From contig JAAOIK010000043.1 in NCBI GenBank assembly GCA_015163855.1, positions 3,133-67,132 of the forward strand: 64,000 bases of DNA. The letters run 5' to 3'. Under the pieces are notes generated by a model. That model saw only the letters and a list, made by a program, of their open reading frames with translations, had not been told where the DNA came from and made no database searches. Each line of letters begins with the position of its first letter. The first letter of the stretch is position 1. Source of the DNA: Pseudobdellovibrionaceae bacterium. GTDB lineage: Bacteria; Bdellovibrionota; Bdellovibrionia; Bdellovibrionales; UBA1609. Of this stretch, positions 686-60,850 are shown piece by piece. The position numbers and the translations under genes were made by a program.

Positions 686-715
686 AAAAAACTCCTTCCT
701 TTTTACCACTTAACT

Positions 716-825
716 TTATTTACAAAGGGAGAGTCTTAGTTAATTCAAACCCTCTGGCGACTCAGCCCAAAGGGGTGCCAGAGCCCGAGGGCTTGAATTA
801 ACTAAGACTCTCCCTTTGTAAATAA
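716..825. repeat. Long perfect inverted repeat (hairpin/cruciform) between aapM and aapP. The apical ~48-nt module (747-794) is shared with the hairpin at 50594-50683.
   Basis: 716-748 (ttatttacaaagggagagtcttagttaattcaa) is the exact reverse complement of 793-825. Pairing continues at 750-754/787-791 with one A.C mismatch. Apex core is cgactcagcccaaaggggtgccagag (758-783). The right arm overlaps the last 28 nt of the 798..1838 CDS. Confidence 0.85.
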
Positions 826-1838
826 GTTTCTAAATATTGAGCGTACTTTCCCATCATAAAACATAATATAAAATAAATAGCGGCGATAAATAAGTAAGCT
901 TCTACGCTGAAGCCTACCCAGCTAGGGTCAGTCACCGCTGCTTTTGCCGTGTACATTAAATCAAATAAAGCGATGATTACTAATAGTGATGTGTCTTTAA
1001 AAAAACCAATAATAGTATTTACTGTGGGAGGGATTACTACTTTTAAGGCTTGAGGTAAAACAACTTTTCGCATTTTTTGGTAATAGTTTAAGCCTAAACT
1101 TTCGGCACCTTCGTATTGACCGTTGGGAATAGACTGCAACCCTCCCCTAACAATTTCTGCCATGTAGGCGGAGAAAAACATAATCATGGCTACTTGGGCG
1201 CGAAATAGTTTTCCAATTTCTACACCCTCTGGCAAAAATAATGGAAGCAACACTGCAGACATAAATAATAAACTGATTAAGGGAATACCTCGAATAAATT
1301 CAATATATAAAATGGATAAGTATTTTAATAAAGGCAAAGAGCTTCTTCTAGCTAAGGCCAGTAACACTCCTAAGGGGTAAGCTACTACTACTCCGCACAC
1401 AGAAACAATAATAGTTAACAGTAAGCCTCCCCATTGTTCGCTATCGACTAATGCTAAACCAAAAAAGCCACCTCGAATTAAAAAAGCACAAAGTAATAGT
1501 ATTACTCCAAAGTAAGAAAAATTTTTAACATGCCAATGTTTTGGATGTTTAATGTAAGAAATAAATCCTGCAAATAATAAAAAGGCTAATGCTGGTCTCC
1601 ACAATTTATCGTCGGGATACAAACCTACTAAAATATATTGAAATTTTGCCCTAATAAACGACCAACAAAACCCAGAACTCGCCCGACAAGTGTCAGCGTC
1701 TCCTTGCCAAACTCCATTAACTATAAAGTATAAAAATAAATGATAAAAAACATACAGTAGCCCAGTAATTAGCAACACGCTAACAGTAGAATTAAAATAG
1801 CCTTTAAATAAATTATTTTTAATATTTTTAAAATCCAT
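798..1838 (-). CDS. aapM: Amino-acid ABC transporter permease (AapM/YhdY-like)
   Basis: Polytopic membrane protein with the His/Glu/Gln/Arg/opine permease signature region EFIRGIPLISLLF ... AYMAEIVRGGLQSIPNGQYEGAESLGL...VVLPQALKVVIPP. It follows the second permease with a 1-nt gap. Confidence 0.88.
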   Translation of the reverse strand: MDFKNIKNNLFKGYFNSTVSVLLITGLLYVFYHLFLYFIVNGVWQGDADTCRASSGFCWSFIRAKFQYILVGLYPDDKLWRPALAFLLFAGFISYIKHPKHWHVKNFSYFGVILLLCAFLIRGGFFGLALVDSEQWGGLLLTIIVSVCGVVVAYPLGVLLALARRSSLPLLKYLSILYIEFIRGIPLISLLFMSAVLLPLFLPEGVEIGKLFRAQVAMIMFFSAYMAEIVRGGLQSIPNGQYEGAESLGLNYYQKMRKVVLPQALKVVIPPTVNTIIGFFKDTSLLVIIALFDLMYTAKAAVTDPSWVGFSVEAYLFIAAIYFILCFMMGKYAQYLETYLQRESLS

Positions 1839-3879: not shown

Positions 3880-3915
3880 TTAAAATCCTTTTTTACTTAA
3901 GTTAAGCTAACTCAA

Positions 3916-11068: not shown

Positions 11069-12466
11069 TCAAAGTAAAATAGTTTTTTCATTTTTATATG
11101 ACACTCTGCCTAAAGAGTCGCCCTTAATGCTTTTTACAAAACGGCATTGCGTATACATTGCATCTAATTTAATTTCAGCCAAATGACCCTTTTTTAAGCT
11201 AAACTCTGCAAGCCATCTCCCGACCATTATAATTTCTTTATCTGTGATTTTTTGAGCCTTTGTGGTTAAAATAATAGCATGGCTAGAAGGATAATCCCTT
11301 AAATGAACCCATATATGCCATGGTCTAGCCTGTCTTAATAAGTCCACATTGGCTTTTGCATTTTTACCCGCAACTACGGCAACCCCCGAATCTAGCAACA
11401 AACTTCGTTTCGCTACACCTGGAAATAAAACGGTTTTTTCCAAAGAAGGTTTTTGCCCCTGCGCTGGTATAAACTTTTTAAAAACTCCTTTTTTAAAAGC
11501 AAGCTCATAAGAAGGCTCTCCCCCTAATAATAGTTGAGGGATTTTTTCGACCTTACACTTTTTAAGTAACGAAATATCGATGACTATATTTAAATTTTTT
11601 AAAAAAGGCGTTTCTATTAAAGTGACTAAAGTATCTAAATCTTTTTGTAAATCTTTTTGTCGCTTTTGCGTTTGCTTTAATTTGTGTGTTATTTTTTTAT
11701 ATTTACTAAATTGATCGTCCATATTCCATGCCCAAGATTGCTTTTCTTTAATATGGATAATTTGATCGCTGCTTAAATTTGTTAAACTGCTAGTGGTGCG
11801 AAGCTTAAAGGCTATTTCTTTGGCCATAGCCCCAGCTCTTAATCTACCTTCAATGTCTTTTTCATTTTTTAGCAAGGCGCGCTGAGTTCGCTTTGTTTTA
11901 TTAGAAAAAAAATGGATCAATGCATTTTGTTTATTTTTACTCTTTTCTTTGCTGTCACGCTGCACCTGCCGACTATCTAACCACTCTTTTTTTATATTCA
12001 ACAGACCTCTAGAGCTTGTTATATCTGTCGAGCAACTATCTTCGCCTTCTTTCTTTACTTTGTACCAACACAAAGATTTATCGTCATAGCTAACTTCTAT
12101 ATTTGCAAAATGGGGAATCATGCAAAACTCTAACAAAAAAGATTCAAAATTAAATTGCAAAATACGCCTAGAACTAAAAGGCATAGCAATAGCACTTAAT
12201 TTTTTTCCTTTTAAATGACTCTTGCAAAATAATCCCACAGGGCTTTTAAACACATTGCTGTCCAGCCTTGGTTTATCAGCAAAATCAAAACACAGTGGAC
12301 TAATCTTGTTAATGTCAAAAAAAAGGTATTGTTTTTTTAAGGCCGAACTCCATAGCTCTAACAAAAGTTGGTTGCCTTGATAAGAAAGATTTTGAACTCT
12401 AGAGCCTTTTAGTGAGTTAAGTTTTTTTAATAACTGGCCAACCTCTAATAAAGATAATGCCCTCAC
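11069..12466 (-). CDS. NFACT/DUF814-domain protein (FbpA/RqcH-like)
   Basis: C-terminal HIWVHLRDYPSSHAIILT matches the DUF814 (NFACT-R) signature. The middle has a basic coiled-coil. It starts 17 nt after the pilR stop. Confidence 0.5.
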   Translation of the reverse strand: MRALSLLEVGQLLKKLNSLKGSRVQNLSYQGNQLLLELWSSALKKQYLFFDINKISPLCFDFADKPRLDSNVFKSPVGLFCKSHLKGKKLSAIAMPFSSRRILQFNFESFLLEFCMIPHFANIEVSYDDKSLCWYKVKKEGEDSCSTDITSSRGLLNIKKEWLDSRQVQRDSKEKSKNKQNALIHFFSNKTKRTQRALLKNEKDIEGRLRAGAMAKEIAFKLRTTSSLTNLSSDQIIHIKEKQSWAWNMDDQFSKYKKITHKLKQTQKRQKDLQKDLDTLVTLIETPFLKNLNIVIDISLLKKCKVEKIPQLLLGGEPSYELAFKKGVFKKFIPAQGQKPSLEKTVLFPGVAKRSLLLDSGVAVVAGKNAKANVDLLRQARPWHIWVHLRDYPSSHAIILTTKAQKITDKEIIMVGRWLAEFSLKKGHLAEIKLDAMYTQCRFVKSIKGDSLGRVSYKNEKTILL

Positions 12467-12482
12467 TGGTAATTACTTTTTA

Positions 12483-13919
12483 TTAGCTAGCAGTGCCTAA
12501 TTCTTTTTCGTCTTTTTCGTCTTTTTCTAAAAGATGCTTCTCTAATCTATAGCGCATCGAGCGAAAGGTAATGTTTAATAGCTTGGCCGCTACTTTTTTT
12601 ACTCCATTAGACAAATGTAATGCTTTAACTAAAAGTTCCTTTTCTAGTTCATCTAAAACTTTATCTAAAAAAATTCCTTTACTAGTAAATTGGAAATTTT
12701 TTAAAACGTTTAGTTGCTCTGGTTGGCTTAATTCTAATAATAAAGGTGGTAAGTGCTCTGGCAAAATAATGGGCTCTGATTCTATTGCAATAATGCGTTC
12801 AATAATATTTTCTAATTCTCTTACATTTCCCGGATAGCGGTACTTTTTTAATTTTTCCGCTGCCTCGGCACTTAGCTGTGACACTGACTTATCAAATTTC
12901 TTTGCAAACTTTTTTAACGCATAGTTTGCCAATAAAATAACATCATCACCTCGGCTACGCAGAGGAGGAAGCGATACTTCAATCACATTAATTCTATAAA
13001 ATAAATCTTCACGAAAAGCTCCTGTCTTTACCATTTCTAGCAAATCTCTATTCGTAGCAGATAAAATTCTGACATCTACCTTTATATTTTCTGTAGACCC
13101 TACTTTGCGAATTTCTTTTTCTTGCAGCACTCTTAATAATTTCGCCTGCATTTCTAGGGGTAATTCGCCCACCTCATCTAAAAACAGCGTTCCTCCAGAG
13201 GCTGCCTCAAACAACCCCTCTTTATCAGAAACTGCACCTGTAAAAGCGCCTTTTCTATGACCAAAAAACTCTGACTCTATTAACTCTGAAGGGATAGCTC
13301 CGCAGTTTACAGGAACAAATGCGGCCCTACTAACAAGGCTATTGTTGTGAATTGCTCTAGCAACTACCTCTTTACCTGTTCCACTTTCTCCTATAATTAA
13401 AATATTAGATTGCGAAGGAGATACTTTTTTTATTAAGTCAAAAACCTGATGCATAGGCTCTGAGTCACCAATGCAATTATCAAAACTATACTCTTGCTGA
13501 ACTTCCCTTCTTAAAAAACGATTTTCTACTTCTAAATCTTTCGCACTAAAGGCTTTTTTTAAATTTATCTGAACCTCTTCAATATTAAAAGGCTTGGTTA
13601 AATAATCGTAGGCTCCAAGCTTCATAGCCTCAATAGCCGTTTCCATACTTCCAAAAGCGGTAATTACCATAAATAACACAGAACTATTTTCTTTAACCAA
13701 TTGCTTTAATAATTCTAACCCCGTCATGTTAGGCATTTGTAAATCAGAAATTACCATATCAAAAGATTGCTTTCTATACACCGATAGAGCTTGCGCACCA
13801 TCTTCTGCACAAACAACATCATAGCCCTCTTTAGTTAGCATAATGTTTAAAAAATCTCTTATGGAAGATTCGTCATCTACAACTAAAATTTTTCTTTTTT
13901 TCATACCTTCGCTCTCCAT
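12483..13919 (-). CDS. pilR: Sigma-54-dependent two-component response regulator (NtrC family, PilR-like)
   Basis: Receiver domain (ILVVDDE...DLQMPNMTG), AAA+ sigma-54 activator domain (GESGTGKEVVARAIH, intact GAFTGA, ESEFFGH) and C-terminal Fis-type HTH (VKKVAAKLLNITFRSMRYRL). It lies next to the pilS-like kinase and pilBTC. Confidence 0.85.
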   Translation of the reverse strand: MESEGMKKRKILVVDDESSIRDFLNIMLTKEGYDVVCAEDGAQALSVYRKQSFDMVISDLQMPNMTGLELLKQLVKENSSVLFMVITAFGSMETAIEAMKLGAYDYLTKPFNIEEVQINLKKAFSAKDLEVENRFLRREVQQEYSFDNCIGDSEPMHQVFDLIKKVSPSQSNILIIGESGTGKEVVARAIHNNSLVSRAAFVPVNCGAIPSELIESEFFGHRKGAFTGAVSDKEGLFEAASGGTLFLDEVGELPLEMQAKLLRVLQEKEIRKVGSTENIKVDVRILSATNRDLLEMVKTGAFREDLFYRINVIEVSLPPLRSRGDDVILLANYALKKFAKKFDKSVSQLSAEAAEKLKKYRYPGNVRELENIIERIIAIESEPIILPEHLPPLLLELSQPEQLNVLKNFQFTSKGIFLDKVLDELEKELLVKALHLSNGVKKVAAKLLNITFRSMRYRLEKHLLEKDEKDEKELGTAS

Positions 13920-29909: not shown

Positions 29910-31038
29910 TTATTTTCCGTTTTTGTTTTCTGAGCGATATTTTAAAAAAGCACGACTAAATTTATCTAAATTACCATCTAATACAAGGTTGGGCTGTCCG
30001 CTTTCCTCTCCCATGCGGTGATCTTTTACTAATTGGTAGGGGCATAAAATATACGATCGAATTTGACTACCCCATTCATTAGATTTTTTTGTTTCTGCAG
30101 CCAATTCTTGTTCTTTTTTCTTTTCTTGAGTAGCAAATCGATACAATGCCGACCTTAACATCTTCATCGCTTGATCTTTATTAGCATGTTGGCTTCTTTG
30201 GTTTTGACACTGCACAACAGTCCCCGTGGGCAAATGGGTAATTCGCACTGCCGAATCGGTAGTATTAACATGTTGCCCTCCAGCTCCGCTGGCTCTATAA
30301 GTGTCCACCCTAAGCTCATCGGTTTTTATGCTAATATCCACAGAATCTTCTAATTCGGGAGAAACAAATACCGACGCAAAACTAGTGTGCCTTCGTGCAC
30401 CCGAGTCAAAAGGGCTAATTCTAACTAAGCGATGCACGCCGCTTTCTGATTGAAAAAGCCCAAAACTATTAGAGCCTTTAACTAAAAAATGTATAGATTT
30501 AAAACCTGCCTCTTCTCCGTCGTTGGTATTTAAAACCTCTGTACTAAATTTATTTTTTTGAGCATAGCGCATTAACATACGGCTTAACATCGCCACCCAG
30601 TCGCAAGATTCTGTTCCTCCCGCGCCAGCATGAATGGAAATATAGCAATTACACTGATCATATTTTTGCGATAAAAAATGTTGTGTGTGTAAACTTTCTA
30701 ACAATACTTTAATATTATTTAACTCTTTACTAACATCTAAAAGTAAGCTTTCTCCCTCTTGAGGGTCTTCTTTAATGCAATTTAGTAATTCTTTAACAGA
30801 GCTTAGTTTATAATCGAACTCTTTCCATTGTTTTAAAGATTTTTCTAAAAAACTTTTTTCTTGATTTAATTTTTGTGATTTTTTATAGTTTTCCCAAACT
30901 TCTTTGTCTTGTAACTCTTGTTCTATGACTTGTAAGCGTTGTGCCTTTTGATTTAAATCAAAGAGACCCCCGAGTCTCTTGAGAATCTTTATCCATTTGT
31001 GCTAATATATCTTGAAAGTCGGCTATAGTTTGTGACAC
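29910..31038 (-). CDS. prfB: Peptide chain release factor 2 with programmed +1 frameshift
   Basis: Frame 0 from GTG 31038: MSQTIADFQDILAQMDKDSQETRGSL then TGA (30960..30958). The +1 frame continues DLNQKAQRLQVIEQELQDKEVWEN... into the tracked ORF, which carries SPF (RISPFDS) and GGQ (GAGGQHVNTTDSAVRITH). Confidence 0.9.
30958..30974 (-). promoter_or_regulatory. prfB +1 frameshift site (internal SD-like GGGGG + CUU UGA)
   Basis: Minus strand reads CTCGGGGGTCTCTTTGAT. Compare the canonical E. coli AGGGGGTATCTTTGAC. Confidence 0.85.
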
Positions 31039-39117: not shown

Positions 39118-41931
39118 ATGTCTAAAACTACAAAAACTCCAGAGCAAATTAAATTAGCTGAACAAATTAAAAACAGCTTAAACTTGCCTCAAACAGACTT
39201 TCCCATGCGGGCACAACTCCCACAGAAAGAACCCGGTTATATTCAAAATTGGGTAGATAAAAAACTGTATCACGCTATTTTAGAAAAAAATAAAGATAGT
39301 AAAGTGTTTTCATTTTGCGATGGCCCACCTTACGCTAATGGGCATTTACATCTTGGCCACGCATTAAATAAAATTTTAAAAGATATTACAGTAAAGTATA
39401 AAAATTTATCGGGACATAAAACTCAGTTTATTCCCACTTGGGACTGTCATGGTTTACCCATTGAGTTAAATGTTTATAAAAAATTAAAAAAAGAAGCTCG
39501 TAACAAAAGCAAAAGTGAAATTCGAGCAGAGTGTAAAAAAGAAGCGCAGCATTGGGTAGAAATACAAAAAAAAGAATTTATGCGACTTGGCGTGATTGCC
39601 GATTGGGAAAACCCACGCCTTACTACAGATAAAAACTATGAGGCCGAAGAGGTTAATTTACTAGCTGATATTTTAGAAAATAATTTACTCTACCAAGGCT
39701 ACAAGCCTGTGTATTGGTGCTGTAAATTACAAACTGCCCTTGCCTCGTCAGAAGTGCAATATCAAGATCACACTAGCTCTTCTATTTTTGTAAAATTTTA
39801 TTTAGAGCCCGAAAGCCTTAATCAATTAAAACTTTCTCACAAAAAAACGGCTTTTGTAATTTGGACTACCACTGCGTGGACTCTTCCTGCCAATGTGGGC
39901 ATTTGCCTTAACCCTCAATTTGTTTATGGGTTGTACGAAATCATTGAAGGCGAACACTCAGACACTCATATTATTATTGCTAAAGATTTAAAAAGTTCTG
40001 TAGAAAAAAATTGCCACATACAATTAAAAGAATTACGCACTTTTAAAGCTTGCGAGTTAGAATTACTTTTTGCCAAGCACCCCTTTATAGAAAATCGTCA
40101 ATCTAAAGTAATTTTAGGAGAGCATGTTACCTTAGAGGCCGGAACAGGTTGTGTGCACACCGCCCCCGGGCATGGACTTGACGATTACCATGTGGGAACA
40201 AAATATCAATTACCTGTGTTAAGCCCCGTAGACCCCGCTGGTCGTTACACTTCTGACTTTCCTAAATATGAGGGAGTAAAAATTACAGAAGCTAATTCGA
40301 AAATTGTGGCTGACTTAAAAGAATCTAAACACTTAATTTTTGAAAAAGAAATCACTCACAGCTACCCCCATGGTGATCGCTCTAAAGCTCCTTTAATTTT
40401 TAGAGCTACCCCACAATGGTTTATTAACAGAACTTCGCCATCTTATAATTTAAAAAAAGAAGCACTAAAACTAATCGACTCTAAAGCCATTGCATTTATC
40501 CCTGGCTGGGGAAAAGCACGCTTAAACGCTATGACTGCCAACGCTCCCGACTGGTGTGTGAGTCGACAAAGAACATGGGGTGTTCCCATACCTGTGCTTT
40601 ACTGTACAGAGTGTGGACACAGTTTAGCCAAGCCCGAAATCATGCGAAAGATTGCTGTAAAAATGAAAGAAACCAACGGGATGGAAGCTTATTTTTCCAC
40701 CCCTGTAAAAGAGTTTAGCAAAGGTTATCAGTGTGAAAAATGCCAATCCGATTCTTTTAAAATTGGAAGTGATATTTTAGATGTGTGGTTTGATAGCGGC
40801 GCTTACCATAGAGTTAATCAAGTAAACCAACCTTCCGAAAACTTTCCTGCCGACCTTTACCTAGAGGGCAGTGATCAACATCGCGGCTGGTTTCAAACCA
40901 GCTTATTTGCCTCTTTAGCCGCCAATAAAAAACCGCCTTTTAAACAACTTGTTACCCATGGCTTTGTTACTGATGCACATGGAAAAAAAATGAGCAAGAG
41001 CCTTGGTAATGTTCAAAGCCCTATGAAAATTGTAGAAAAGTATGGGGCAGAAATTTTACGCCTATGGGTTGCTCACGAAGACTATTCGCAAGACCTGTCC
41101 TTTAAAGAAGAAGGTTTAAAACAACTCACCGACACTTATAGAAAAATTCGTAACAGCCTTCGCTTTTTATTGGGAAATATTCACGACTTTAACCTAGAAA
41201 AAGACAGCCTAAATTACAAAGACCTTAGTGATTTAGATAAATTTGCTTTGCATAAATTAAATGTATTGATTAAAAATACTACAGTTCATTATGATAACTA
41301 CCAATTTCATAAGGTGTACCACGAATTAAATACTTTTTTTGTTACACTGTCTTCGCAGTATTTAGATTTATTAAAAGATCGTCTTTATACTGCCAAAACT
41401 ACGGGCCCGTCTAGGCGATCGGCTCAAACAGTTTTTTACATATTATTAAAAAACTTAAGCCCTTTAATGAGCCCTATTTTAAGCTTTCTTTCTGAAGAAA
41501 TACACAAAAATATTAATACTAACGATGAGGTATTTTCTGTTTTCTTACTGCCTTTTCCAAAACCCAACCCCCAATGGGAAAATACAAAATTATTTGATTC
41601 TATAAACCAACTACTCGAGCTAAAAACAAAAGCTTATAAAGATATTGAAGATTTAAGAGCTCAAAAAAAAATTGGCTCTAGTTTAGAAATAGAATTAGAA
41701 ATATATAACCTTCCTAAAGAGCTTGCCCACTACACAGAAAGTTTTTTAGTTGAGTTTTTTATTGTCTCTAAGGTGGTTTTAAAAAACACACAAGACAAAG
41801 CTTTAAAAATAAACAGTTTAATTAGTAGTGGAGATAAATGTCCTCGGTGCTGGACTTATAGTTTAGAACTAATCGAACACAAACCTTGGGGTACAAATAT
41901 TTGCAAAAAATGTGTAGATGCTTTACTCTAA
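39118..41931 (+). CDS. ileS: Isoleucyl-tRNA synthetase IleS
   Basis: PPYANGHLHLGHALNK (HIGH), KMSKSLGN (KMSKS) and C-terminal zinc-finger cysteines CPRCW...CKKC. Confidence 0.95.
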   Translation: MSKTTKTPEQIKLAEQIKNSLNLPQTDFPMRAQLPQKEPGYIQNWVDKKLYHAILEKNKDSKVFSFCDGPPYANGHLHLGHALNKILKDITVKYKNLSGHKTQFIPTWDCHGLPIELNVYKKLKKEARNKSKSEIRAECKKEAQHWVEIQKKEFMRLGVIADWENPRLTTDKNYEAEEVNLLADILENNLLYQGYKPVYWCCKLQTALASSEVQYQDHTSSSIFVKFYLEPESLNQLKLSHKKTAFVIWTTTAWTLPANVGICLNPQFVYGLYEIIEGEHSDTHIIIAKDLKSSVEKNCHIQLKELRTFKACELELLFAKHPFIENRQSKVILGEHVTLEAGTGCVHTAPGHGLDDYHVGTKYQLPVLSPVDPAGRYTSDFPKYEGVKITEANSKIVADLKESKHLIFEKEITHSYPHGDRSKAPLIFRATPQWFINRTSPSYNLKKEALKLIDSKAIAFIPGWGKARLNAMTANAPDWCVSRQRTWGVPIPVLYCTECGHSLAKPEIMRKIAVKMKETNGMEAYFSTPVKEFSKGYQCEKCQSDSFKIGSDILDVWFDSGAYHRVNQVNQPSENFPADLYLEGSDQHRGWFQTSLFASLAANKKPPFKQLVTHGFVTDAHGKKMSKSLGNVQSPMKIVEKYGAEILRLWVAHEDYSQDLSFKEEGLKQLTDTYRKIRNSLRFLLGNIHDFNLEKDSLNYKDLSDLDKFALHKLNVLIKNTTVHYDNYQFHKVYHELNTFFVTLSSQYLDLLKDRLYTAKTTGPSRRSAQTVFYILLKNLSPLMSPILSFLSEEIHKNINTNDEVFSVFLLPFPKPNPQWENTKLFDSINQLLELKTKAYKDIEDLRAQKKIGSSLEIELEIYNLPKELAHYTESFLVEFFIVSKVVLKNTQDKALKINSLISSGDKCPRCWTYSLELIEHKPWGTNICKKCVDALL

Positions 41932-49670: not shown

Positions 49671-50573
49671 ATGCAAAAATTAATACTAGGATTATTAACA
49701 ACTACCTTAATGGCTTGCGGTAGCGGCGGCTGGGGCAATGGCAGTAACGGCGGGCAAGGCGGCGATGATAATGCTTGGACAGGAGATTTAAGAGTACAAA
49801 GCACAAGCTTTTTATCCAGCTATAATTTGTGTGGAAATACAAACGCTCGTGTGAAGCAAGATCTAATCGGTACAGGCATCGCCCGATTATTAACGGGCAG
49901 CTTAAGCTGGAGAAATACGCTTTCCGACGGCTTAGGTATCGCATTTAATCGCGGACTTATTCAAAACTGTGGTCGAATGAAAAAAATGTTGGTAACTATG
50001 TATTCTTATCAACCTTATTTGCCCGAGGGCGATTCGGTATTATATCTAGAACCTGTGGCACAAGCAGCATGGCATTATAGTTATGGCCCACAAAATAATA
50101 TTTACTACGAAAAACTGAATAGCTTTATCCAAGCAGGACGAACTCGTTCTGGCTCTACTCCTCCCCTAATTTTAAAGAAAAAAAGCAAAGACACTACAGC
50201 CACTTCTGCTAGTGTGAGTGCGTTTTTATGGAACCAAGATGTAGATGCAAGAGGTAACACGCAAGGAGACCTCCGTCTTAGCTCTATTAATAGAAAATTA
50301 AAAATTACTACTTGGCGCACAGACTCAACCTCTACTTACGACAGAGATATTGAAATTAAAATTGAGCAGGGTGGCCGCACCGTAGGAACAGGCACTTTAG
50401 TGTTTGATGACCAAAGCTACTATAACCAAAACAAAACCGCAAACAAAAGACAATTAGCTTCACTTATAAGCAAAATAAAAAATCAACCCTTCTTAATATG
50501 GGGAGTTCTTTGCGGGTTAATTTTACTAATGATAACCGCTCTATTTTTATTACCAAAAAAAACTAAAAGCTAA
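49671..50573 (+). CDS. Hypothetical Gly-rich lipoprotein with an additional C-terminal TM helix and basic tail
   Basis: Lipobox TTLMAC followed by GSGGWGNGSNGGQGG. The C-terminus PFLIWGVLCGLILLMITALFLLPKKTKS resembles a sorting-signal architecture. AAGGAG RBS upstream. Confidence 0.5.
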   Translation: MQKLILGLLTTTLMACGSGGWGNGSNGGQGGDDNAWTGDLRVQSTSFLSSYNLCGNTNARVKQDLIGTGIARLLTGSLSWRNTLSDGLGIAFNRGLIQNCGRMKKMLVTMYSYQPYLPEGDSVLYLEPVAQAAWHYSYGPQNNIYYEKLNSFIQAGRTRSGSTPPLILKKKSKDTTATSASVSAFLWNQDVDARGNTQGDLRLSSINRKLKITTWRTDSTSTYDRDIEIKIEQGGRTVGTGTLVFDDQSYYNQNKTANKRQLASLISKIKNQPFLIWGVLCGLILLMITALFLLPKKTKS

Positions 50574-50593
50574 AAGAGCACATCTGCCAAAAC

Positions 50594-50683
50594 GCAAGAG
50601 GCCTTAAAATAATAAGCCCTCTATGACGACTCACCCAAAGGGTGCCAGAGTCATAGAGGGCTTATTATTTTAAGGCCTCTTGC
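50594..50683. repeat. Perfect 33-bp-arm hairpin between convergent genes. The apical module is shared with 716-825. Likely a bidirectional terminator.
   Basis: 50594-50626 (gcaagaggccttaaaataataagccctctatga) is the exact reverse complement of 50651-50683. The loop is cgactcacccaaagggtgccagag. It is flanked by CAAAAC on the left and ATTTTG on the right. Confidence 0.85.
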
Positions 50684-50723
50684 ATTTTGACGTGGCGTTT
50701 TGGCGTGGCATTTTGACGTGGCG
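50684..50723. repeat. Three tandem ~13-nt repeats (A)TTTTG(A)CGTGGC(G)
   Basis: attttgacgtggcg / ttttggcgtggc / attttgacgtggcg, directly abutting the hairpin and 27 nt beyond the polA stop codon. Confidence 0.8.
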
Positions 50724-50749
50724 TTTTTAGCCAGCTGTGCTTTTTTACC

Positions 50750-53500
50750 TCAACACTCCAACCAATTAGCCCCGCAAGAAATATTCACTTCTAAAGGAAC
50801 TTTTAATGGAACTACCGATTCCATAATATTTTTTAACTCTAAAATATTATCTTCGCGATTTTCTATTAAACTTTCTATAATTAATTCGTCATGTACTTGT
50901 AACAATAAAAAAGCATCTAAACTGCTGGCCACTTTTACCATAGCTAATTTAATCAAGTCACTAGCCGTGCCTTGCATGGGGGCATTAGTGGCTGCTCTTT
51001 CTCCAAACTTTTGCACATTTACACGGCTAGATAATAAGTCTGGCAAGTAACGCCGTCTTCCTAAAAGGGTTTTAACATAAATGTCCTCATGGGCCTGCTC
51101 TTTAACACTTTCCATATACTCTTGCACTAAAGGAAATCGACTGTGATAGTTTTTAATAATACTGCTGGCCTCGGCCCGAGAAATTCCTAAACTTTCTGAT
51201 AAACCAAAAACGCCCTGCCCATAAGAAATACCAAAGTTTACCGCCTTAGCCCTACCCCTTTGTTCTTTGGTCACTTTTTTTAAAGGCGTTTTAAAAATTT
51301 GAGAAGCAGTAAAAGCATGAACATCTTCTTTGTTAATAAATGCTTTGCATAAATTTTTATCTCCTGATAGGTGGGCCAATATTCGTAATTCTATTTGGCT
51401 ATAATCTGCTGCAATAAATTCATAACTGGGGCGCGCAACAAAAGCCTTTCTTAATAGTTTTCCACGAGCCGTTTTAATGGGAATGTTTTGCAAATTAGGA
51501 TTAGAGCTAGATAACCGCCCCGTGCTAGTTACCGACTGGTTAAACTGCGTGTGCAAATAAACCTGCTTATTTAATCGCTTTAACAAACCCGTCACATAAG
51601 TGGATTGCAACTTACTTAACTCTCTAAATTCTAAAATAAATTTTACTATTTTATGCTTTTTTAAAGGCTCTAAAACTGAAGACGCTGTGCTATAGGCCGT
51701 TTTTGTTTTTTTCCCCACAGGAAAACCTAGTTTTTCAAATAAAATAACGCCCAACTGCTTAGGGCTTGCAATATTAAACTCTTCACCCGCCTCTTCATAA
51801 ATACTTTTAGTTAACTTATTAATATCTTCGCTTAGTTGTTTTTCTTGTGTTAATAAAAATTTTTTATCCATTAACATGCCTCTATTTTCCATATCGTACA
51901 ATACAGAAATTAAAGGAAGTTCTACTTGAGAAAAAATGTATTCTGTGTCAGAAAGTTTTAAAAAATGCGAAAATACAATTTCACACTCAAGGTGTAGCCT
52001 TAAAATATCAAAAGCCGAAATTGTATTTTTAAAATCTTTTTTTATTTCAATATCTTTTTCTAAATATTTAAAGCACAAACCTTCCCACGATTTAATATTG
52101 TTAGATGTTCCCACATGGGCAGCTAATTGATTGTCCCATATTGTAATACCTGCTTTTTTAAAACCCATTTGCGTCCACAGGTTTTTAATATCGTAGGATT
52201 TAAAACCAATCTTTTTGCTCTCTAACACCTCTCCAATATCCCGCAAGCTGTCTGTGGCTTCAGAAGAAAGGTTTAACTGCTCATTTAAGTTATCAGCAAA
52301 CGGAATTTTTAAAAAATGTTTTCCAAAAAAAAGAAAGACGCTAGACTCGTAACAAAACACCCATGCCTTTTCGTAGGGAGGCAACACTTCCTTTAGCTCT
52401 TTAACAGAAATACTTTTTATCTTTTTAGGAATAAAAATATCTTTTATTTTTTTTTTAACAATAGTGTCTGTAATAGAAGATTTAGTAAAAGCTAAAAACG
52501 ATTTATCTACTTTTGTCTTAACAGAAGTTTTAAGACTGGCTTTTGACAAATGGTTTTTTTCTTTTATTAACTTAAAGCCTTGCTCGCCCCCTGGGGCTAA
52601 AACATTTTTTTCTTCAAAGTTAAGTTCGCTGCCCCCTGATTGCCACTCCATAAAGCCTGTATAGGTATTTTTAAAAGCAAATTGCTCGGTATAGGCTTTA
52701 AAAGCTTTTTCGTTGATGGGGTTTAACTTCCAGTCGCTTTCAGAAATAGGAAGGCTTACTTTTGTGTCAATTTTAACTAAAGTTTGCGATAAAAATGCGA
52801 TTTTTTTTGCTTCTAATAACTTTTTTTTAACTGTATCTGAGGCTATTTTTTCTACATTGTCATAAATGTTTTTTAAGGTTTTAAACTCTAATAATAATTT
52901 TGATGCCCCTTTTGGGCCAATCCCCCTTACTCCTGGAATATTGTCACTGCTGTCTCCCACTAAGGCTAAGTAATCAATCATCTGCTCTGGCTTTACATTC
53001 CACTTTTCTAACACTTGCTTGTTGTCATAAATTATTTCGCGGTGGATGTCGTACATACAAATGTCTTTATTAATTAATTGAGCAAAGTCTTTATCTCCGC
53101 TAACTATAGCCACAGAGTAACCTTTTTTTTCGCCGTCTTTTGCAAGAGACCCTATAACATCATCGGCCTCAAAACCTTTTTTGCTAGCCACGCATATGCC
53201 AAGAGATTTTATTAGGCCCTCAACAAAAGGTAGCTGCTCTGCTAAATCGGGGTCTAAATCTTTTCGATTAGCCTTATACTCTGAATATATTTTTTTTCTA
53301 AAGCTGGGGTGAGGGGTGTCTAAGCAAAAAACCACCGTGCTGGGCGCTTTGGTTTTTAATAGTTTTAAAACCACTTTTAAAAAACCAAACAAAGCATTAG
53401 TCGACTGTCCCTCTTTGTTTTGCATAGGAGGTAAAGCGTAAAAAGCTCTAAAAACAATAGCGCTAACATCTACTAAATAAAGAATTTTTTTATTTTTCAT
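50750..53500 (-). CDS. polA: DNA polymerase I PolA
   Basis: 5' nuclease N-terminus (LYLVDVSAIVFRAFYALP, GIGPKGASKLL). Polymerase motif A DYSQIELRILAH, motif B RGRAKAVNFGISYG, motif C LLLQVHDELIIE. Confidence 0.95.
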   Translation of the reverse strand: MKNKKILYLVDVSAIVFRAFYALPPMQNKEGQSTNALFGFLKVVLKLLKTKAPSTVVFCLDTPHPSFRKKIYSEYKANRKDLDPDLAEQLPFVEGLIKSLGICVASKKGFEADDVIGSLAKDGEKKGYSVAIVSGDKDFAQLINKDICMYDIHREIIYDNKQVLEKWNVKPEQMIDYLALVGDSSDNIPGVRGIGPKGASKLLLEFKTLKNIYDNVEKIASDTVKKKLLEAKKIAFLSQTLVKIDTKVSLPISESDWKLNPINEKAFKAYTEQFAFKNTYTGFMEWQSGGSELNFEEKNVLAPGGEQGFKLIKEKNHLSKASLKTSVKTKVDKSFLAFTKSSITDTIVKKKIKDIFIPKKIKSISVKELKEVLPPYEKAWVFCYESSVFLFFGKHFLKIPFADNLNEQLNLSSEATDSLRDIGEVLESKKIGFKSYDIKNLWTQMGFKKAGITIWDNQLAAHVGTSNNIKSWEGLCFKYLEKDIEIKKDFKNTISAFDILRLHLECEIVFSHFLKLSDTEYIFSQVELPLISVLYDMENRGMLMDKKFLLTQEKQLSEDINKLTKSIYEEAGEEFNIASPKQLGVILFEKLGFPVGKKTKTAYSTASSVLEPLKKHKIVKFILEFRELSKLQSTYVTGLLKRLNKQVYLHTQFNQSVTSTGRLSSSNPNLQNIPIKTARGKLLRKAFVARPSYEFIAADYSQIELRILAHLSGDKNLCKAFINKEDVHAFTASQIFKTPLKKVTKEQRGRAKAVNFGISYGQGVFGLSESLGISRAEASSIIKNYHSRFPLVQEYMESVKEQAHEDIYVKTLLGRRRYLPDLLSSRVNVQKFGERAATNAPMQGTASDLIKLAMVKVASSLDAFLLLQVHDELIIESLIENREDNILELKNIMESVVPLKVPLEVNISCGANWLEC

Positions 53501-57688: not shown

Positions 57689-60600
57689 ATGTTTTCACTA
57701 TTCACTATGTCAAATAAGAAGAACCTGCTTATATTTTGGTGTATTAGCCTATTTTTTATATCTTCTGCAATGGCTCTTGCCGACCGCACAATGGCCCCTA
57801 CTGACCGCGGTAATTGGCAATCTAGTGACCAAAAAATTGACAAAAAACAAGAGTTTTACTCTCACCTTTGTCAGTTACAAGTTTATATGCTCGACCCCTC
57901 ATACCAAAAAACCATTAAGAAAAAATATGCAACCACCGTGCTTTTTTCAAAAGCCTTGTTGAAACAATATAACCCTTTGGCAACCGCCGACTATACTGTG
58001 CAAAGCCTGTTAGACAGGTCTATGGTGCTATCTCCATTTTCGATTTCTAATTCGGCAAATGTTTTTAAAAAAGAATTAGAAGCTTATAGTGTTGCACAAC
58101 TATCTAGCCATATAAACCGCTTTGCACAATTTTTAAAACACCCCGTTAAAAACCAAGCATTAAACTCTTGTCTAAATAAGCAGTACCCGAAAATAAATAT
58201 ACAAACACCACTTGCATCTATAGGTAAGCGACAAAAGCTATTAACGCAGTTAAGAAACACTGCTCTTTTGTATCAAAAATGGATTAAAAACAGTAAAAAA
58301 CAAAATTCTTATACTAAGCTGTCCAACGCTGTTGAAAAAATTCATAACGATATTGCCAACAAACCTTTGCATAGTGTTTTAATTAATTTTCAATCTAAGT
58401 GGTCTGTAAAACTAAAGCATTCTCTACTGCCCCAACTAACTTCTTTGGGGCAATCTTTAATTGCCAATTCATCAAGCTTTACAAAAAAAACTCATAAATT
58501 ATTAGACAAAAAACTACACTCCTCTATTGCCAGCTTACAAAAACTAACAAAAAAGGTTTGTCAAAAAAAAGTGACTAACTTGCATCACGATGTATTTGCT
58601 GTGGAAGAGGCTGTTTTAAAACACAGCTCTAAAGTTACCTTTCCCCTTCCTGTAATTTCTGAAGATTTAGCTGCATACTGCTACTTAAATCAAAAGCACC
58701 CCAAAAAAAAAATAGGTTCTAGTTGGAAATCTGATACCGGGCTAGGAATCTTTGGAGTCGCCTTTATTGCTCGTATTTTTAATTGGATTGGAAAAAAAAC
58801 ACTTATAGCCTCAAGTCTTACCAGTACTGCGCTGTTTTCTGCAGACACTTATAATAATTGGAAAATTAATTCCTCTCAAAAAACACTATATGATATACAA
58901 AAATATCACTCTATAACTAGTGCAAAAACTTTAAAAACTTTAAAAAAAGATCAAGACTTAGTACACCTAGATTCTGGCTTGTTGCTTTTACCCTCTTTAG
59001 TATCAAAAATAACTAACTTTGTTCAAGCTAGAAAAATACAAAGGCTTTCTTCTTTGTTTAAACAAAATTCCGCAAAGACTACTAATTATTTTTTAAAAAC
59101 ATATATAAACAGCCCCTCCAAGTGGTGGCCTTATTATAACTCTTTAATTAAAAATTTAAAAATTAAAGAACTTAAACAATTTTTTTGGGCAAAGCATGAT
59201 CGCCTAAAACCTTTAAGAGTTAGTAAGTCCTATGCCATTAGAAAAAAGGCCAGCGAGTTTTTTTCTAGAATTAATCAAAATTATATAGCTCCTGCCCGAT
59301 ATTTAACCGATAAAGATTTTGTAAAAACTTTGATCTTCTTAAAAAACGGCAAAGGGGCAATTGCTTCTGCAGAGACAAAGGCAGGCTTACAATATATACA
59401 AAAATTACTTAAAAAAACACATCTTTATACAGTAAATGTAAATAAAATAATAACTCAGTCCATAGAGGCCACTGCACAATTAAAAAAATTGAAATCCCTG
59501 CGTATTAAACCTAAGTACTTTGCCAACAATAAAAAGGTAACAATTAACAGTTGGCCTATTGCAAAAAATGGCGAGATGGTAAAAGTGAAAACATTTACAT
59601 TTAATTCTTACAATGAATACAAATCGTTTTTTGCAGAGTTAAAAATAAAATCCAATTACCTGCCTACGCGAGCTATTGATGATTTATTACAAAAAAAACG
59701 GCTTTATGCAGAGCAGTTAAAGCAGGGAAGTAATATTAGAAGGCTACAAATTATAACTGATAAATTACAATTACTGCAAAAAACACAAAAATTAAACGCT
59801 TCTCAATTAAAAATATTAGCGTCTGTAAAAAGTGCATTAAAAAATGCAAACATCTACCCTCCCAACAGAGCTTTTAAAAAGATTTTTTTAAAAGAGCTAA
59901 GTGCAGAAGTGCATTATTTAAAACAAGGCATACAAAACAGAAAAGCTTTTGTAAAAAAAGCCTATTCCAGCTTTCCTGAAAAAAATGTTGAAGCCCTATA
60001 CGCAACCACTTCTTTTTTAACCAATCATTTAAAGCAAGTTGTATGGACTGGTGTAAGTATCGCCGTGGTGGGCGGAACTGCTAAAGGTGTGCAGAAATTT
60101 GGTTTGGATTATATTATAGCTCAATTTCAAGATAAAATGCGCCGCATTGATAGAATATTTACTTCTTCCGGTTACACCGGCGAGGAAAAAGATTGTGCAC
60201 TTAATTCAGAAAGCTTTAAAAAATTTATGCTTTGCTATAATAAATTAATTAAACAAGAGGTAAAAGTCGACATTTTAAGACTAAGAAATTTTGAATTTTT
60301 GCAAGACAAAGACATAGATGAAAAAGATACTCAGGAATACCGGTTGAAATTATACTCTTCTATTAAGAAAAAATTGCAAAAATATACCTATGGGTTATTG
60401 TCACTGCGATCTCAATTTAGCACACAAGAGCTTTTTTATAACTCGCAAATACAAATAAACAATGCTTTAAGTGAGCAGTTTATTTACCAAGTGCTAAAAA
60501 GTATTAAAAAACATTTGGGAGAAAAAAGTTTTCAGTATGCAAAATCCATTTTAACTACGAACGCAGAAAGAAAAGCCTCTTTTAAACAAATTACTAACCT

Positions 60601-60850
60601 TAGTAAAATAGTTGATACTGGTGCTACAAATATTATCTTGCTGCAAAATATCCTTTACCAAGTTTACAGTAATCAAAAAAAATATAGTTTGTACTTTAAA
60701 AATACAGGACAATTACCTATAGAGTTACGAGCCTTAATAAAAAATAAAGATCTTATTGAATTACAAGAATTAAATGAGTCTGAAAAATTTAATATTCTTT
60801 CTGGCGGATTGTTAGAAAATGTAGACTTTTTGCAAAACCTAGTGTTTTAA
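57689..60850 (+). CDS. Large (1053 aa) Lys-rich hypothetical secreted/membrane protein
   Basis: Perfect AAGGAG RBS 6 nt before the ATG. Signal-like N-terminus (LLIFWCISLFFISSAMALA). Internal hydrophobic segments (GLGIFGVAFIARIF, VVWTGVSIAVVGG). Otherwise predicted helical, with no motif I recognise. Confidence 0.6.
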   Translation: MFSLFTMSNKKNLLIFWCISLFFISSAMALADRTMAPTDRGNWQSSDQKIDKKQEFYSHLCQLQVYMLDPSYQKTIKKKYATTVLFSKALLKQYNPLATADYTVQSLLDRSMVLSPFSISNSANVFKKELEAYSVAQLSSHINRFAQFLKHPVKNQALNSCLNKQYPKINIQTPLASIGKRQKLLTQLRNTALLYQKWIKNSKKQNSYTKLSNAVEKIHNDIANKPLHSVLINFQSKWSVKLKHSLLPQLTSLGQSLIANSSSFTKKTHKLLDKKLHSSIASLQKLTKKVCQKKVTNLHHDVFAVEEAVLKHSSKVTFPLPVISEDLAAYCYLNQKHPKKKIGSSWKSDTGLGIFGVAFIARIFNWIGKKTLIASSLTSTALFSADTYNNWKINSSQKTLYDIQKYHSITSAKTLKTLKKDQDLVHLDSGLLLLPSLVSKITNFVQARKIQRLSSLFKQNSAKTTNYFLKTYINSPSKWWPYYNSLIKNLKIKELKQFFWAKHDRLKPLRVSKSYAIRKKASEFFSRINQNYIAPARYLTDKDFVKTLIFLKNGKGAIASAETKAGLQYIQKLLKKTHLYTVNVNKIITQSIEATAQLKKLKSLRIKPKYFANNKKVTINSWPIAKNGEMVKVKTFTFNSYNEYKSFFAELKIKSNYLPTRAIDDLLQKKRLYAEQLKQGSNIRRLQIITDKLQLLQKTQKLNASQLKILASVKSALKNANIYPPNRAFKKIFLKELSAEVHYLKQGIQNRKAFVKKAYSSFPEKNVEALYATTSFLTNHLKQVVWTGVSIAVVGGTAKGVQKFGLDYIIAQFQDKMRRIDRIFTSSGYTGEEKDCALNSESFKKFMLCYNKLIKQEVKVDILRLRNFEFLQDKDIDEKDTQEYRLKLYSSIKKKLQKYTYGLLSLRSQFSTQELFYNSQIQINNALSEQFIYQVLKSIKKHLGEKSFQYAKSILTTNAERKASFKQITNLSKIVDTGATNIILLQNILYQVYSNQKKYSLYFKNTGQLPIELRALIKNKDLIELQELNESEKFNILSGGLLENVDFLQNLVF

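Follow-up and report, generated by a model that had tools for sequence, protein, structure and literature searches.

The 64-kilobase (kb) window, by which we mean the whole stretch of DNA analyzed here, comes from a Pseudobdellovibrionaceae bacterium and carries two long hairpins, H1 and H2, that share a small conserved apex. Together with four further copies in relatives they appear, with moderate confidence, to form a small family of stem-loops that occupies intergenic sites and is restricted to a single lineage, one clade of metagenome-assembled genomes (MAGs) resembling Bdellovibrionaceae/Pseudobdellovibrionaceae. Our best reading, to which we give about an even chance, is that the family is an inherited RNA hairpin module, located at 3' ends or between cistrons, with long arms that were built secondarily from host flanking sequence. 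The family combines known kinds, being intergenic palindromic or terminator repeats shaped by template switching.

H2 (50588-50689, strand-neutral) lies between two convergent genes. A first-pass annotation of this DNA had described 50594-50626 and 50651-50683 as exact 33-nucleotide (nt) reverse complements, which we confirmed. Pairing extends one base further to 34 perfect nt (50594-50627 with 50650-50683), and the arms reach 40 nt (50588-50627 with 50650-50689) when one mismatch, C50593/A50684, is allowed. H1 (716-825, strand-neutral) lies between the genes for an ATP-binding cassette (ABC) transporter permease and an ABC ATPase. Its 43-nt arms (716-758 and 783-825) contain two mismatched pairs, 749/792 and 755/786. 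The module strings quoted in the annotation are exact, and the two cores, CGACTCAGCCCAAAGGGGTGCCAGAG in H1 (758-783) and CGACTCACCCAAAGGGTGCCAGAG in H2 (50627-50650), differ by two single-G indels only, both copies being oriented on the plus strand as it had said. Read on the minus strand, the apical core is TCTGGCACCCCTTTGGGCTGAGTCG in the permease sense at H1 (758-782) and TCTGGCACCCTTTGGGTGAGTCG in the polA sense at H2 (50627-50649). In H2 the core is a 5-bp mini-hairpin, CACCC/GGGTG, between unpaired TCTGG and AGTCG. With the lower stem AAGCCCTC...GAGGGCTT it makes up a strand-neutral module of about 50 nt (50614-50663) that folds at -31.5 kcal/mol.

H1 and H2 are not chance features. In 100 shuffles of the window that preserved dinucleotide composition, the core pattern was never matched, and the folding z-scores of the hairpins against shuffles are -13 to -17. 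Neither the window nor some 230 kb of related DNA contained another inverted repeat of comparable length and perfection.

Further copies were sought in relatives. Orthologous regions were fetched by synteny (polA 69-78% and permease 75-88% identical to the window) and combined with an nhmmer profile, yielding four further copies. In all there are six copies, from four or five genomes, which occupy three intergenic sites conserved in synteny; their nhmmer E-values run from 2e-15 to 5e-3. Two are in the 64-kb window and all six in the roughly 290 kb of clade DNA covered. Site A, between the permease and ATPase genes, holds H1 in the window and a copy in the relative L033 (2920-2975). Site B, at the 3' end of polA, holds H2 and a copy in L015 (12776-12866). 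Site C, which is located some 3 kb upstream in the same ABC operon between rmuC and a gene for a substrate-binding protein (SBP), holds copies in L021 (7858-7930) and L018 (7740-7845); in the window this interval has a small hairpin without the core (3880-3915, minus strand). All six copies are located shortly after a stop codon. The claim that the hairpins belong to an undescribed family holds at this small scale of six copies, absent from Rfam at gathering thresholds.

The conserved unit is smaller than the roughly 50 nt first proposed. Aligned in one orientation, the six copies have about 25 nt in common, TC(T/G)GRCAYCCC-TTT-GGGYTGARTCG. This apex takes the form of a GC mini-hairpin of 5-6 bp, CA(N)CCC-TTT-GGG(N)TG, with unpaired 5-nt and 4-nt shoulders (TCKRR and ARTCG), and at two of the three sites it is carried by a GC-rich lower stem of 8-14 bp. 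The lower stem AAGCCCTC/GAGGGCTT is confined to sites A and B. The 50-nt module of H2 is accordingly found also in H1, is degraded in L015 and L033, and is missing from the site C copies, which have a different inner stem (TTTTAAAAGC..CTTTTTC). The recurrence of one asymmetric apex on three unrelated stems suggests earlier mobility, ectopic conversion, insertion aimed at the apex, or co-evolution with a binding factor, any of which may have operated.

Presence of the module is patchy across the polA identity tree. The genome represented by L011 and L019 is empty at all three sites and that of L016 and L021 at sites A and B. At the sites each covers, the module is also missing from L022 (A and C) and from L034 (B). 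The apices of the two window copies (W1 and W2, paralogues in one genome) are identical at 23 of 25 positions, compared with 17-20 of 25 for pairs at orthologous sites. L018 and L033, both flipped and at different sites, agree at 20 of 25. L015 and L018, which come from one sample, share TCG...AATCG though they occupy different sites.

Two arms, one in each window hairpin, show that the long outer arms are host flank and not part of the element. At H1, the outer part of the right arm (798-825, minus strand) is the native 3' end of the permease gene, coding for YLQRESLS and the stop. The same C-terminus is kept in hairpin-free permease orthologues including L019 and L021, in which the permease stop overlaps the ATPase start (ATGA) at site A. 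The outer part of the left arm (716-743, strand-neutral) is an exact inverted duplicate of the permease 3' end and is absent from the empty sites of L019 and L021. Because the C-terminus is conserved in hairpin-free orthologues, the left arm is the inverted duplicate of native coding sequence. One arm of H1 is therefore ancestral and the other its inverted copy, absent from outgroups. Read from the sequence, TTAACT at 710-715 (plus strand) is a direct repeat of 798-803 and flanks the module together with the inverted copy of the permease end; this repeat is ambiguous and may be either switch-back microhomology or a target duplication.

The same case at H2 is weaker. The arm distal to polA aligns at 21 of 27 positions with the 3' half and U-tract of a plain terminator in L016, a score reached by 8 of 2000 shuffles. 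Because of this match we take the distal arm to be native and the proximal arm to be its copy. The earlier suggestion of a miniature inverted-repeat transposable element (MITE) with diverging terminal repeats is rejected on these results, as the H1 arm is host coding sequence and the H2 arm matches the plain terminator of a relative.

Assembly breaks also bear on the arms. Logan contigs (k = 31) of the window organism terminate exactly k-1 = 30 nt inside the perfect stems, L003 in H2 and L032 in H1. The contig of L018, whose permease is 85% identical, stops at the same position of site A, and its coding arm differs at three positions. This contig end implies a putative site A stem in L018 that is perfect over at least 31 nt, its non-coding arm tracking the coding arm. 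The contig of L014 ends within arms that resemble H2 by eye, with a best alignment that is not significant. The hairpins are a concrete and systematic cause of contig breaks in k-mer assemblies of MAGs from this clade, and as a result copies would be under-represented in short-read assemblies.

Arms that are unrelated between sites yet perfectly self-complementary would be explained by template-switch copying of the flank, which we propose as their origin. The nascent strand would fold at the module during replication, the small stable module of H2 being an obvious nucleus, and the polymerase would switch template. Adjacent host sequence would then be copied inverted, including the last eight permease codons at H1. 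The same process would keep the two arms identical to each other while they diverge between genomes, would flip the asymmetric apex, and would be accompanied by central deletions. The apex itself could have spread to the three sites by old transposition, ectopic conversion or apex-targeted insertion. Intramolecular template switching is known to homogenize the arms of inverted repeats, to expand them and to invert spacers, and it creates and maintains perfect RNA hairpins (PMC8604942, PMC13100816, PMC8794818, PMC5941160). The first-pass idea that intra-element conversion keeps the arms perfect fits the data, with template switching as the proposed mechanism.

In the stems, 16 of 28 pairs are changed on both sides, which none of 500 shuffles reach. 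A conserved apex with a covarying stem was another of the initial readings, and it survives in that the apex is shared while the stems differ and stay paired. It does not amount to proof of RNA selection, because template-switch copying explains the covariation equally well. The case is a caution that covarying stems around a conserved apex are no sure sign of selection on an RNA.

The apex has opposite orientations in orthologous copies. The alignment of L033 to W1 scores 52 when one of them is reverse-complemented, compared with 27 when both are read in one orientation, and at site C the L018 apex is inverted relative to that of L021 while their inner stems are still homologous. Both pairs thus show spacer inversion, for which independent insertions in opposite orientations may also be responsible. 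In L033 the lower stem is partly converted to a direct repeat and the arms have decayed; from a reading of the sequence, its outermost 14 nt pair with the permease end at 12 of 14 positions.

Two relatives have small hairpins without the apex at these sites. At site A, the 10-bp stem of L022 (4573-4613), TTTACAAAAA/TTTTTGTAAA, matches the words at the far ends of the H1 arms and encloses no module. At site B, L016 has a small plain terminator hairpin at about 12785-12815. These, and the small window hairpin at site C, may be products of central deletion or ancestral hairpins that were never invaded, both of which are compatible with the data. We rejected the window hairpin at 3880-3915 as a remnant of the site C arms of L018 and L021, since the likeness seen by eye is not significant in alignment.

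We propose that the module would act in the sense transcript as an RNA hairpin at the 3' end or between cistrons. At site B it would be a bidirectional intrinsic terminator, and in the ABC operon a partial terminator, a stabilizer or an RNase III substrate. A bidirectional terminator role for H2, already suggested in the first-pass annotation, is plausible given the convergent genes and a GC-rich inner stem followed by UUAUUAUUUU on both strands (TTATTATTTT likewise follows the inner stem on both strands). In the L015 copy the A- and T-tracts, of the A23 and T23 type, are without flaw and T-rich 23-mers follow on both strands; the relatives L011 and L016 have plain terminators at the site B spot. 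The U-tract of H1 is poor. Four of five hairpins fold more stably as the sense strand than as the antisense, with a difference of 1.4 to 9.7 kcal/mol. There are 11 G.U pairs in the sense against 4 in the antisense, and the stem mismatches, seen in window 716-825 and 50588-50689, L021 7853-7936 and L018 7737-7850, are mostly G.U in the sense RNA and A.C in the antisense.

Several observations weigh against an inherited RNA hairpin. A consensus terminator scan did not call H2, whose loop exceeds 8 nt, and H1 is within an operon, a setting in which strong termination would do harm. The asymmetry in G.U pairs is marginal (one-sided p ~0.06), and a transcription-associated C-to-T bias could also have produced it. 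Flipping the apex should destroy an RNA function, yet flipped copies persist, in L018 with the stem intact; because they persist, the apex would not be essential but either tolerated or selfish. That apex likeness does not track site orthology suggests mobility or conversion. The apex-less hairpins of L022 and L016 fit insertion of the module into a pre-existing hairpin equally well, in which case template switching perfected the arms rather than creating them. The copies number only six, and the points drawn from L018 and L014 rest on the positions of contig ends.

The strongest alternative is one that we consider possible though clearly less probable than an inherited RNA hairpin. The apex (about 25 nt) or the module (about 50 nt) would be a selfish non-autonomous element, moved by an enzyme encoded elsewhere such as a RAYT or an IS200/IS605-type single-stranded DNA transposase, that inserts by preference into the apical loops of existing hairpins or terminators, in either orientation. 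Terminator activity would be incidental. Such an element agrees with an apex that recurs on three unrelated stems, lies in opposite orientations at one site in different genomes and is patchily present across the polA tree, and with outer-arm-like hairpins that lack it in L022 (A) and L016 (B). The decoupling of apex likeness from site orthology (W1-W2 23/25; the two flipped copies 20/25) and the TCG...AATCG shared at different sites by L015 and L018 point the same way. The copies nevertheless occur at three shared sites only, which looks more like vertical inheritance with loss, and their known number is low for a mobile element at six in about 290 kb. A Pfam scan of about 38 open reading frames (ORFs) in the 64-kb window revealed no transposase, integrase or HUH protein, and no RAYT (Y1 transposase). 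There is no target-site duplication of fixed length, the ambiguous 6-nt TTAACT at H1 (710-715/798-803) having no equivalent at H2 or L015. GTDB representatives, JGI metagenomes, viral contigs, plasmids and phages gave no meaningful matches, and template switching alone is documented to invert spacers.

The first-pass reading in which a small module targets hairpin apices seems unlikely, if not strongly so. Somewhat more doubtful is its specific form, in which the apex is the cis-acting core of an undescribed tiny mobile element that is inserted or copied, in either orientation, specifically into the loops of existing hairpins or terminators and has no terminal repeats of its own. We are just as doubtful that such a "parasite of terminator hairpins" gained its perfect arms by template-switch copying of host flank. 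If the apex is mobile and hairpin-targeting, it would be a new style of minimal bacterial repeat.

It is improbable that the apex is instead a DNA-level site for a host DNA-binding or processing protein (a nucleoid protein, a regulator or a cruciform-binding protein) to which it is presented by the hairpin or cruciform. Orientation would be irrelevant to such a site, consistent with the persistence of flipped copies with intact stems (L018), and apex variants particular to a genome would be the outcome of co-evolution with the protein, consistent with variants being shared within a sample and differing between genomes. Two of the three sites are in one amino-acid ABC operon, one upstream of the SBP gene and the other preceding the ATPase gene, but the third, at the polA 3' end, has no functional link to it. 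No candidate protein was identified and no known motif matched; the resemblance to a sigma-54 site fails and GANTC is in only five of six copies. An asymmetric 25-nt site with an internal mini-hairpin would also be unusual for binding of double-stranded DNA. If the apex does bind a factor, it would mark a small regulon in an uncultured lineage of predatory bacteria.

Palindromes are a classic product of fold-back chimeras and the Logan assemblies fail at the hairpin positions, but it is scarcely credible that assembly or amplification falsely produced the long perfect arms around a genuine short module: the hairpins are internal to a contig (longest record 71 kb) and are bordered on each side by collinear genes; at H1 an intact spacer, ribosome-binding site and ATPase start come after the inserted inverted copy; independent Logan assemblies from two runs reproduce the arm and break at k-1 = 30 nt as a true repeat of at least 31 nt predicts; and an analogous long near-perfect hairpin is inside the L018 contig at site C, with related copies in three other assemblies.

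Specific known motifs were also considered and rejected. W1 and W2 do contain the TGGCAC of a sigma-54 promoter (TGGCAC-N5-TTGC), but their -12 GC is not in register, so that GG-N10-GC is not formed, and the GG is absent from L015 and L033. A CcrM-type GANTC site is in five of the six copies only. For a kink-turn (K-turn) RNA motif the G.A pairs are out of register. An origin from a tRNA D-arm or variable arm, or from a type I-C CRISPR repeat, comes down to a likeness of short GC hairpins. A rolling-circle origin with iterons is not supported, as the 13-nt repeats described below are at H2 only and absent from L015. The R''/R' motifs of an integron attC (RYYYAAC/GTTRRRY) are not at the arm ends; the base here is variable and the centre conserved, which is the opposite pattern.

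Database searches for the core gave seven matches in GTDB representative genomes, all chance and none within a hairpin. In JGI metagenomes the strict core pattern had no matches and a degenerate pattern nine, attributable to chance. Viral contigs gave one chance match to the core pattern and then none, and BLAST of the module against plasmids and phages found nothing meaningful. Rfam 15 detected two tRNAs only over the whole window. In the Rfam check of the hairpins that the first-pass annotation had called for, no family reached its gathering threshold; relaxed searches with both hairpins returned only generic long-hairpin (microRNA precursor) matches, at 46-48 bits versus thresholds of 67-90. 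ARAGORN found no tRNA-like or transfer-messenger RNA features at the hairpins.

Like REP, BIME and REPIN sequences (PMC3116915, PMC3337134), the hairpin family is a short GC-rich imperfect palindrome, extragenic and just 3' of stop codons, in an AT-rich genome. It likewise has multiple copies, is lineage-restricted and apparently long-lived, and may stabilize mRNA 3' ends or terminate transcription. In REPINs, however, the arms (REPs) are conserved and the spacer varies, whereas here it is the apex that is conserved, with arms that are unrelated from site to site. There is also no GTAG-type 5' tetranucleotide, and the known copy density is far lower: REPIN-RAYT systems have tens to hundreds of copies per genome, compared with two in 64 kb here, where assemblies break at the hairpins.

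Similar to intrinsic terminators, H2 and the L015 copy are between convergent genes and have a GC-rich stem that is preceded by an A-tract and followed by a T-tract. They differ in having a structured apex of 22-25 nt instead of a 3-8-nt loop, stems of 40 bp, and an apex that recurs elsewhere, including inside an operon. MITEs and the Correia/NEMIS, ERIC, RUP, BOX and Rickettsia RPE repeats are also small, non-coding, hairpin-forming and intergenic, and can abut or enter the 3' ends of coding sequences. In contrast to MITEs, the terminal inverted repeats of the hairpin family are not conserved between copies and are host-derived in two cases. To our knowledge there is no sequence resemblance to Correia/NEMIS, ERIC, RUP, BOX or RPE.

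There is also a likeness to inverted repeats made by template switching (including quasi-palindrome correction), which share the homogenized 34-43-nt arms that track a diverging coding arm, arm expansion into the flank (the permease 3' end at H1) and the flipped apex (L033 and L018). Template switching is a mutational process and not an element family, and it leaves the same 25-nt spacer at three loci unexplained. The arms here are of a length unusual in bacteria, and one of them has taken in coding sequence together with its stop codon. The minute inversions in plastid hairpin loops (reviewed in PMC12371153) are also short asymmetric loops that flip recurrently between related genomes, but each of those hairpins is a single locus and they have no loop sequence in common across loci, whereas the hairpins here do. 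The hairpin family is a clean natural example in bacteria of a long perfect palindrome made from host sequence around a small hairpin nucleus, including the last codons and stop of a gene, with intermediate, flipped, decayed and possibly deleted states preserved in relatives.

The palindrome at H2 is real but larger than first described. A decayed outer layer adds 50568-50586, which pairs with 50732-50750 (both strand-neutral), the right half abutting the polA stop codon. Pairing is 16 of 19, a score reached by 8 of 2000 shuffles. The same extension test found no outer layer beyond the arms of H1. The layering of H2 indicates repeated rounds of palindrome building and decay. The right side of the outer layer is interrupted by a 13-nt tandem repeat, TTTTGACGTGGCG in 3.3 copies (50685-50727, plus strand), that begins within the right arm; a single inverted unit is on the opposite side of H2 at about 50586-50595. 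This repeat looks like a slippage expansion of the end of the H2 arm and is absent from the L015 orthologue.

With about 35% G+C, the window is a piece of housekeeping chromosome; its polA and permease proteins are identical to proteins from an NCBI MAG that carries the label Bdellovibrionaceae/Pseudobdellovibrionaceae. Its genes include lpxA/B/K, bamA, prfB, murJ, holA, purA, folA, ileS, aroA/B, eno, polA and genes for type IV pilus ATPases. The permease gene next to H1 (798-1838, minus strand) is the second permease gene of its amino-acid ABC transporter operon and has its stop and last eight codons within the H1 arm; the ATPase gene on the other side starts at 685, also on the minus strand. 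Converging on H2 are the gene for DNA polymerase I, polA (50750-53500, minus strand), and a gene for a 300-amino-acid protein without a Pfam match (49671-50573, plus strand) that is syntenic in relatives.

Two other repeats were noted. Inside ileS (window 40058-40116), a 12-bp inverted repeat surrounds the apex-like GCACCCCTTTATAGAAAATCG; nhmmer did not detect this word as a family copy and it is probably chance. In L019 (GCA_015163875.1), a relative without all three hairpin copies, the interval between an ABC ATPase gene and clpP (11772-12087) contains ATGTACCTGACCCTCAAGTCT about five times in direct orientation, in some cases with AATTAAACAAGACT after it; this is a different intergenic repeat family.

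Elsewhere in the window, prfB, coding for release factor 2 (RF2), has a classic programmed +1 frameshift site, GGGGG TCT CTT TGA T, at 30955-30971 on the minus strand. The prfB ORF as listed (29910-30704) is without the N-terminal part of the PCRF domain. A 1053-amino-acid ORF (57689-60850, plus strand) has no Pfam match; it is conserved and syntenic in all relatives (1034-1086 amino acids), beside dusB and a gene for a T2SSE/PilT-like ATPase.

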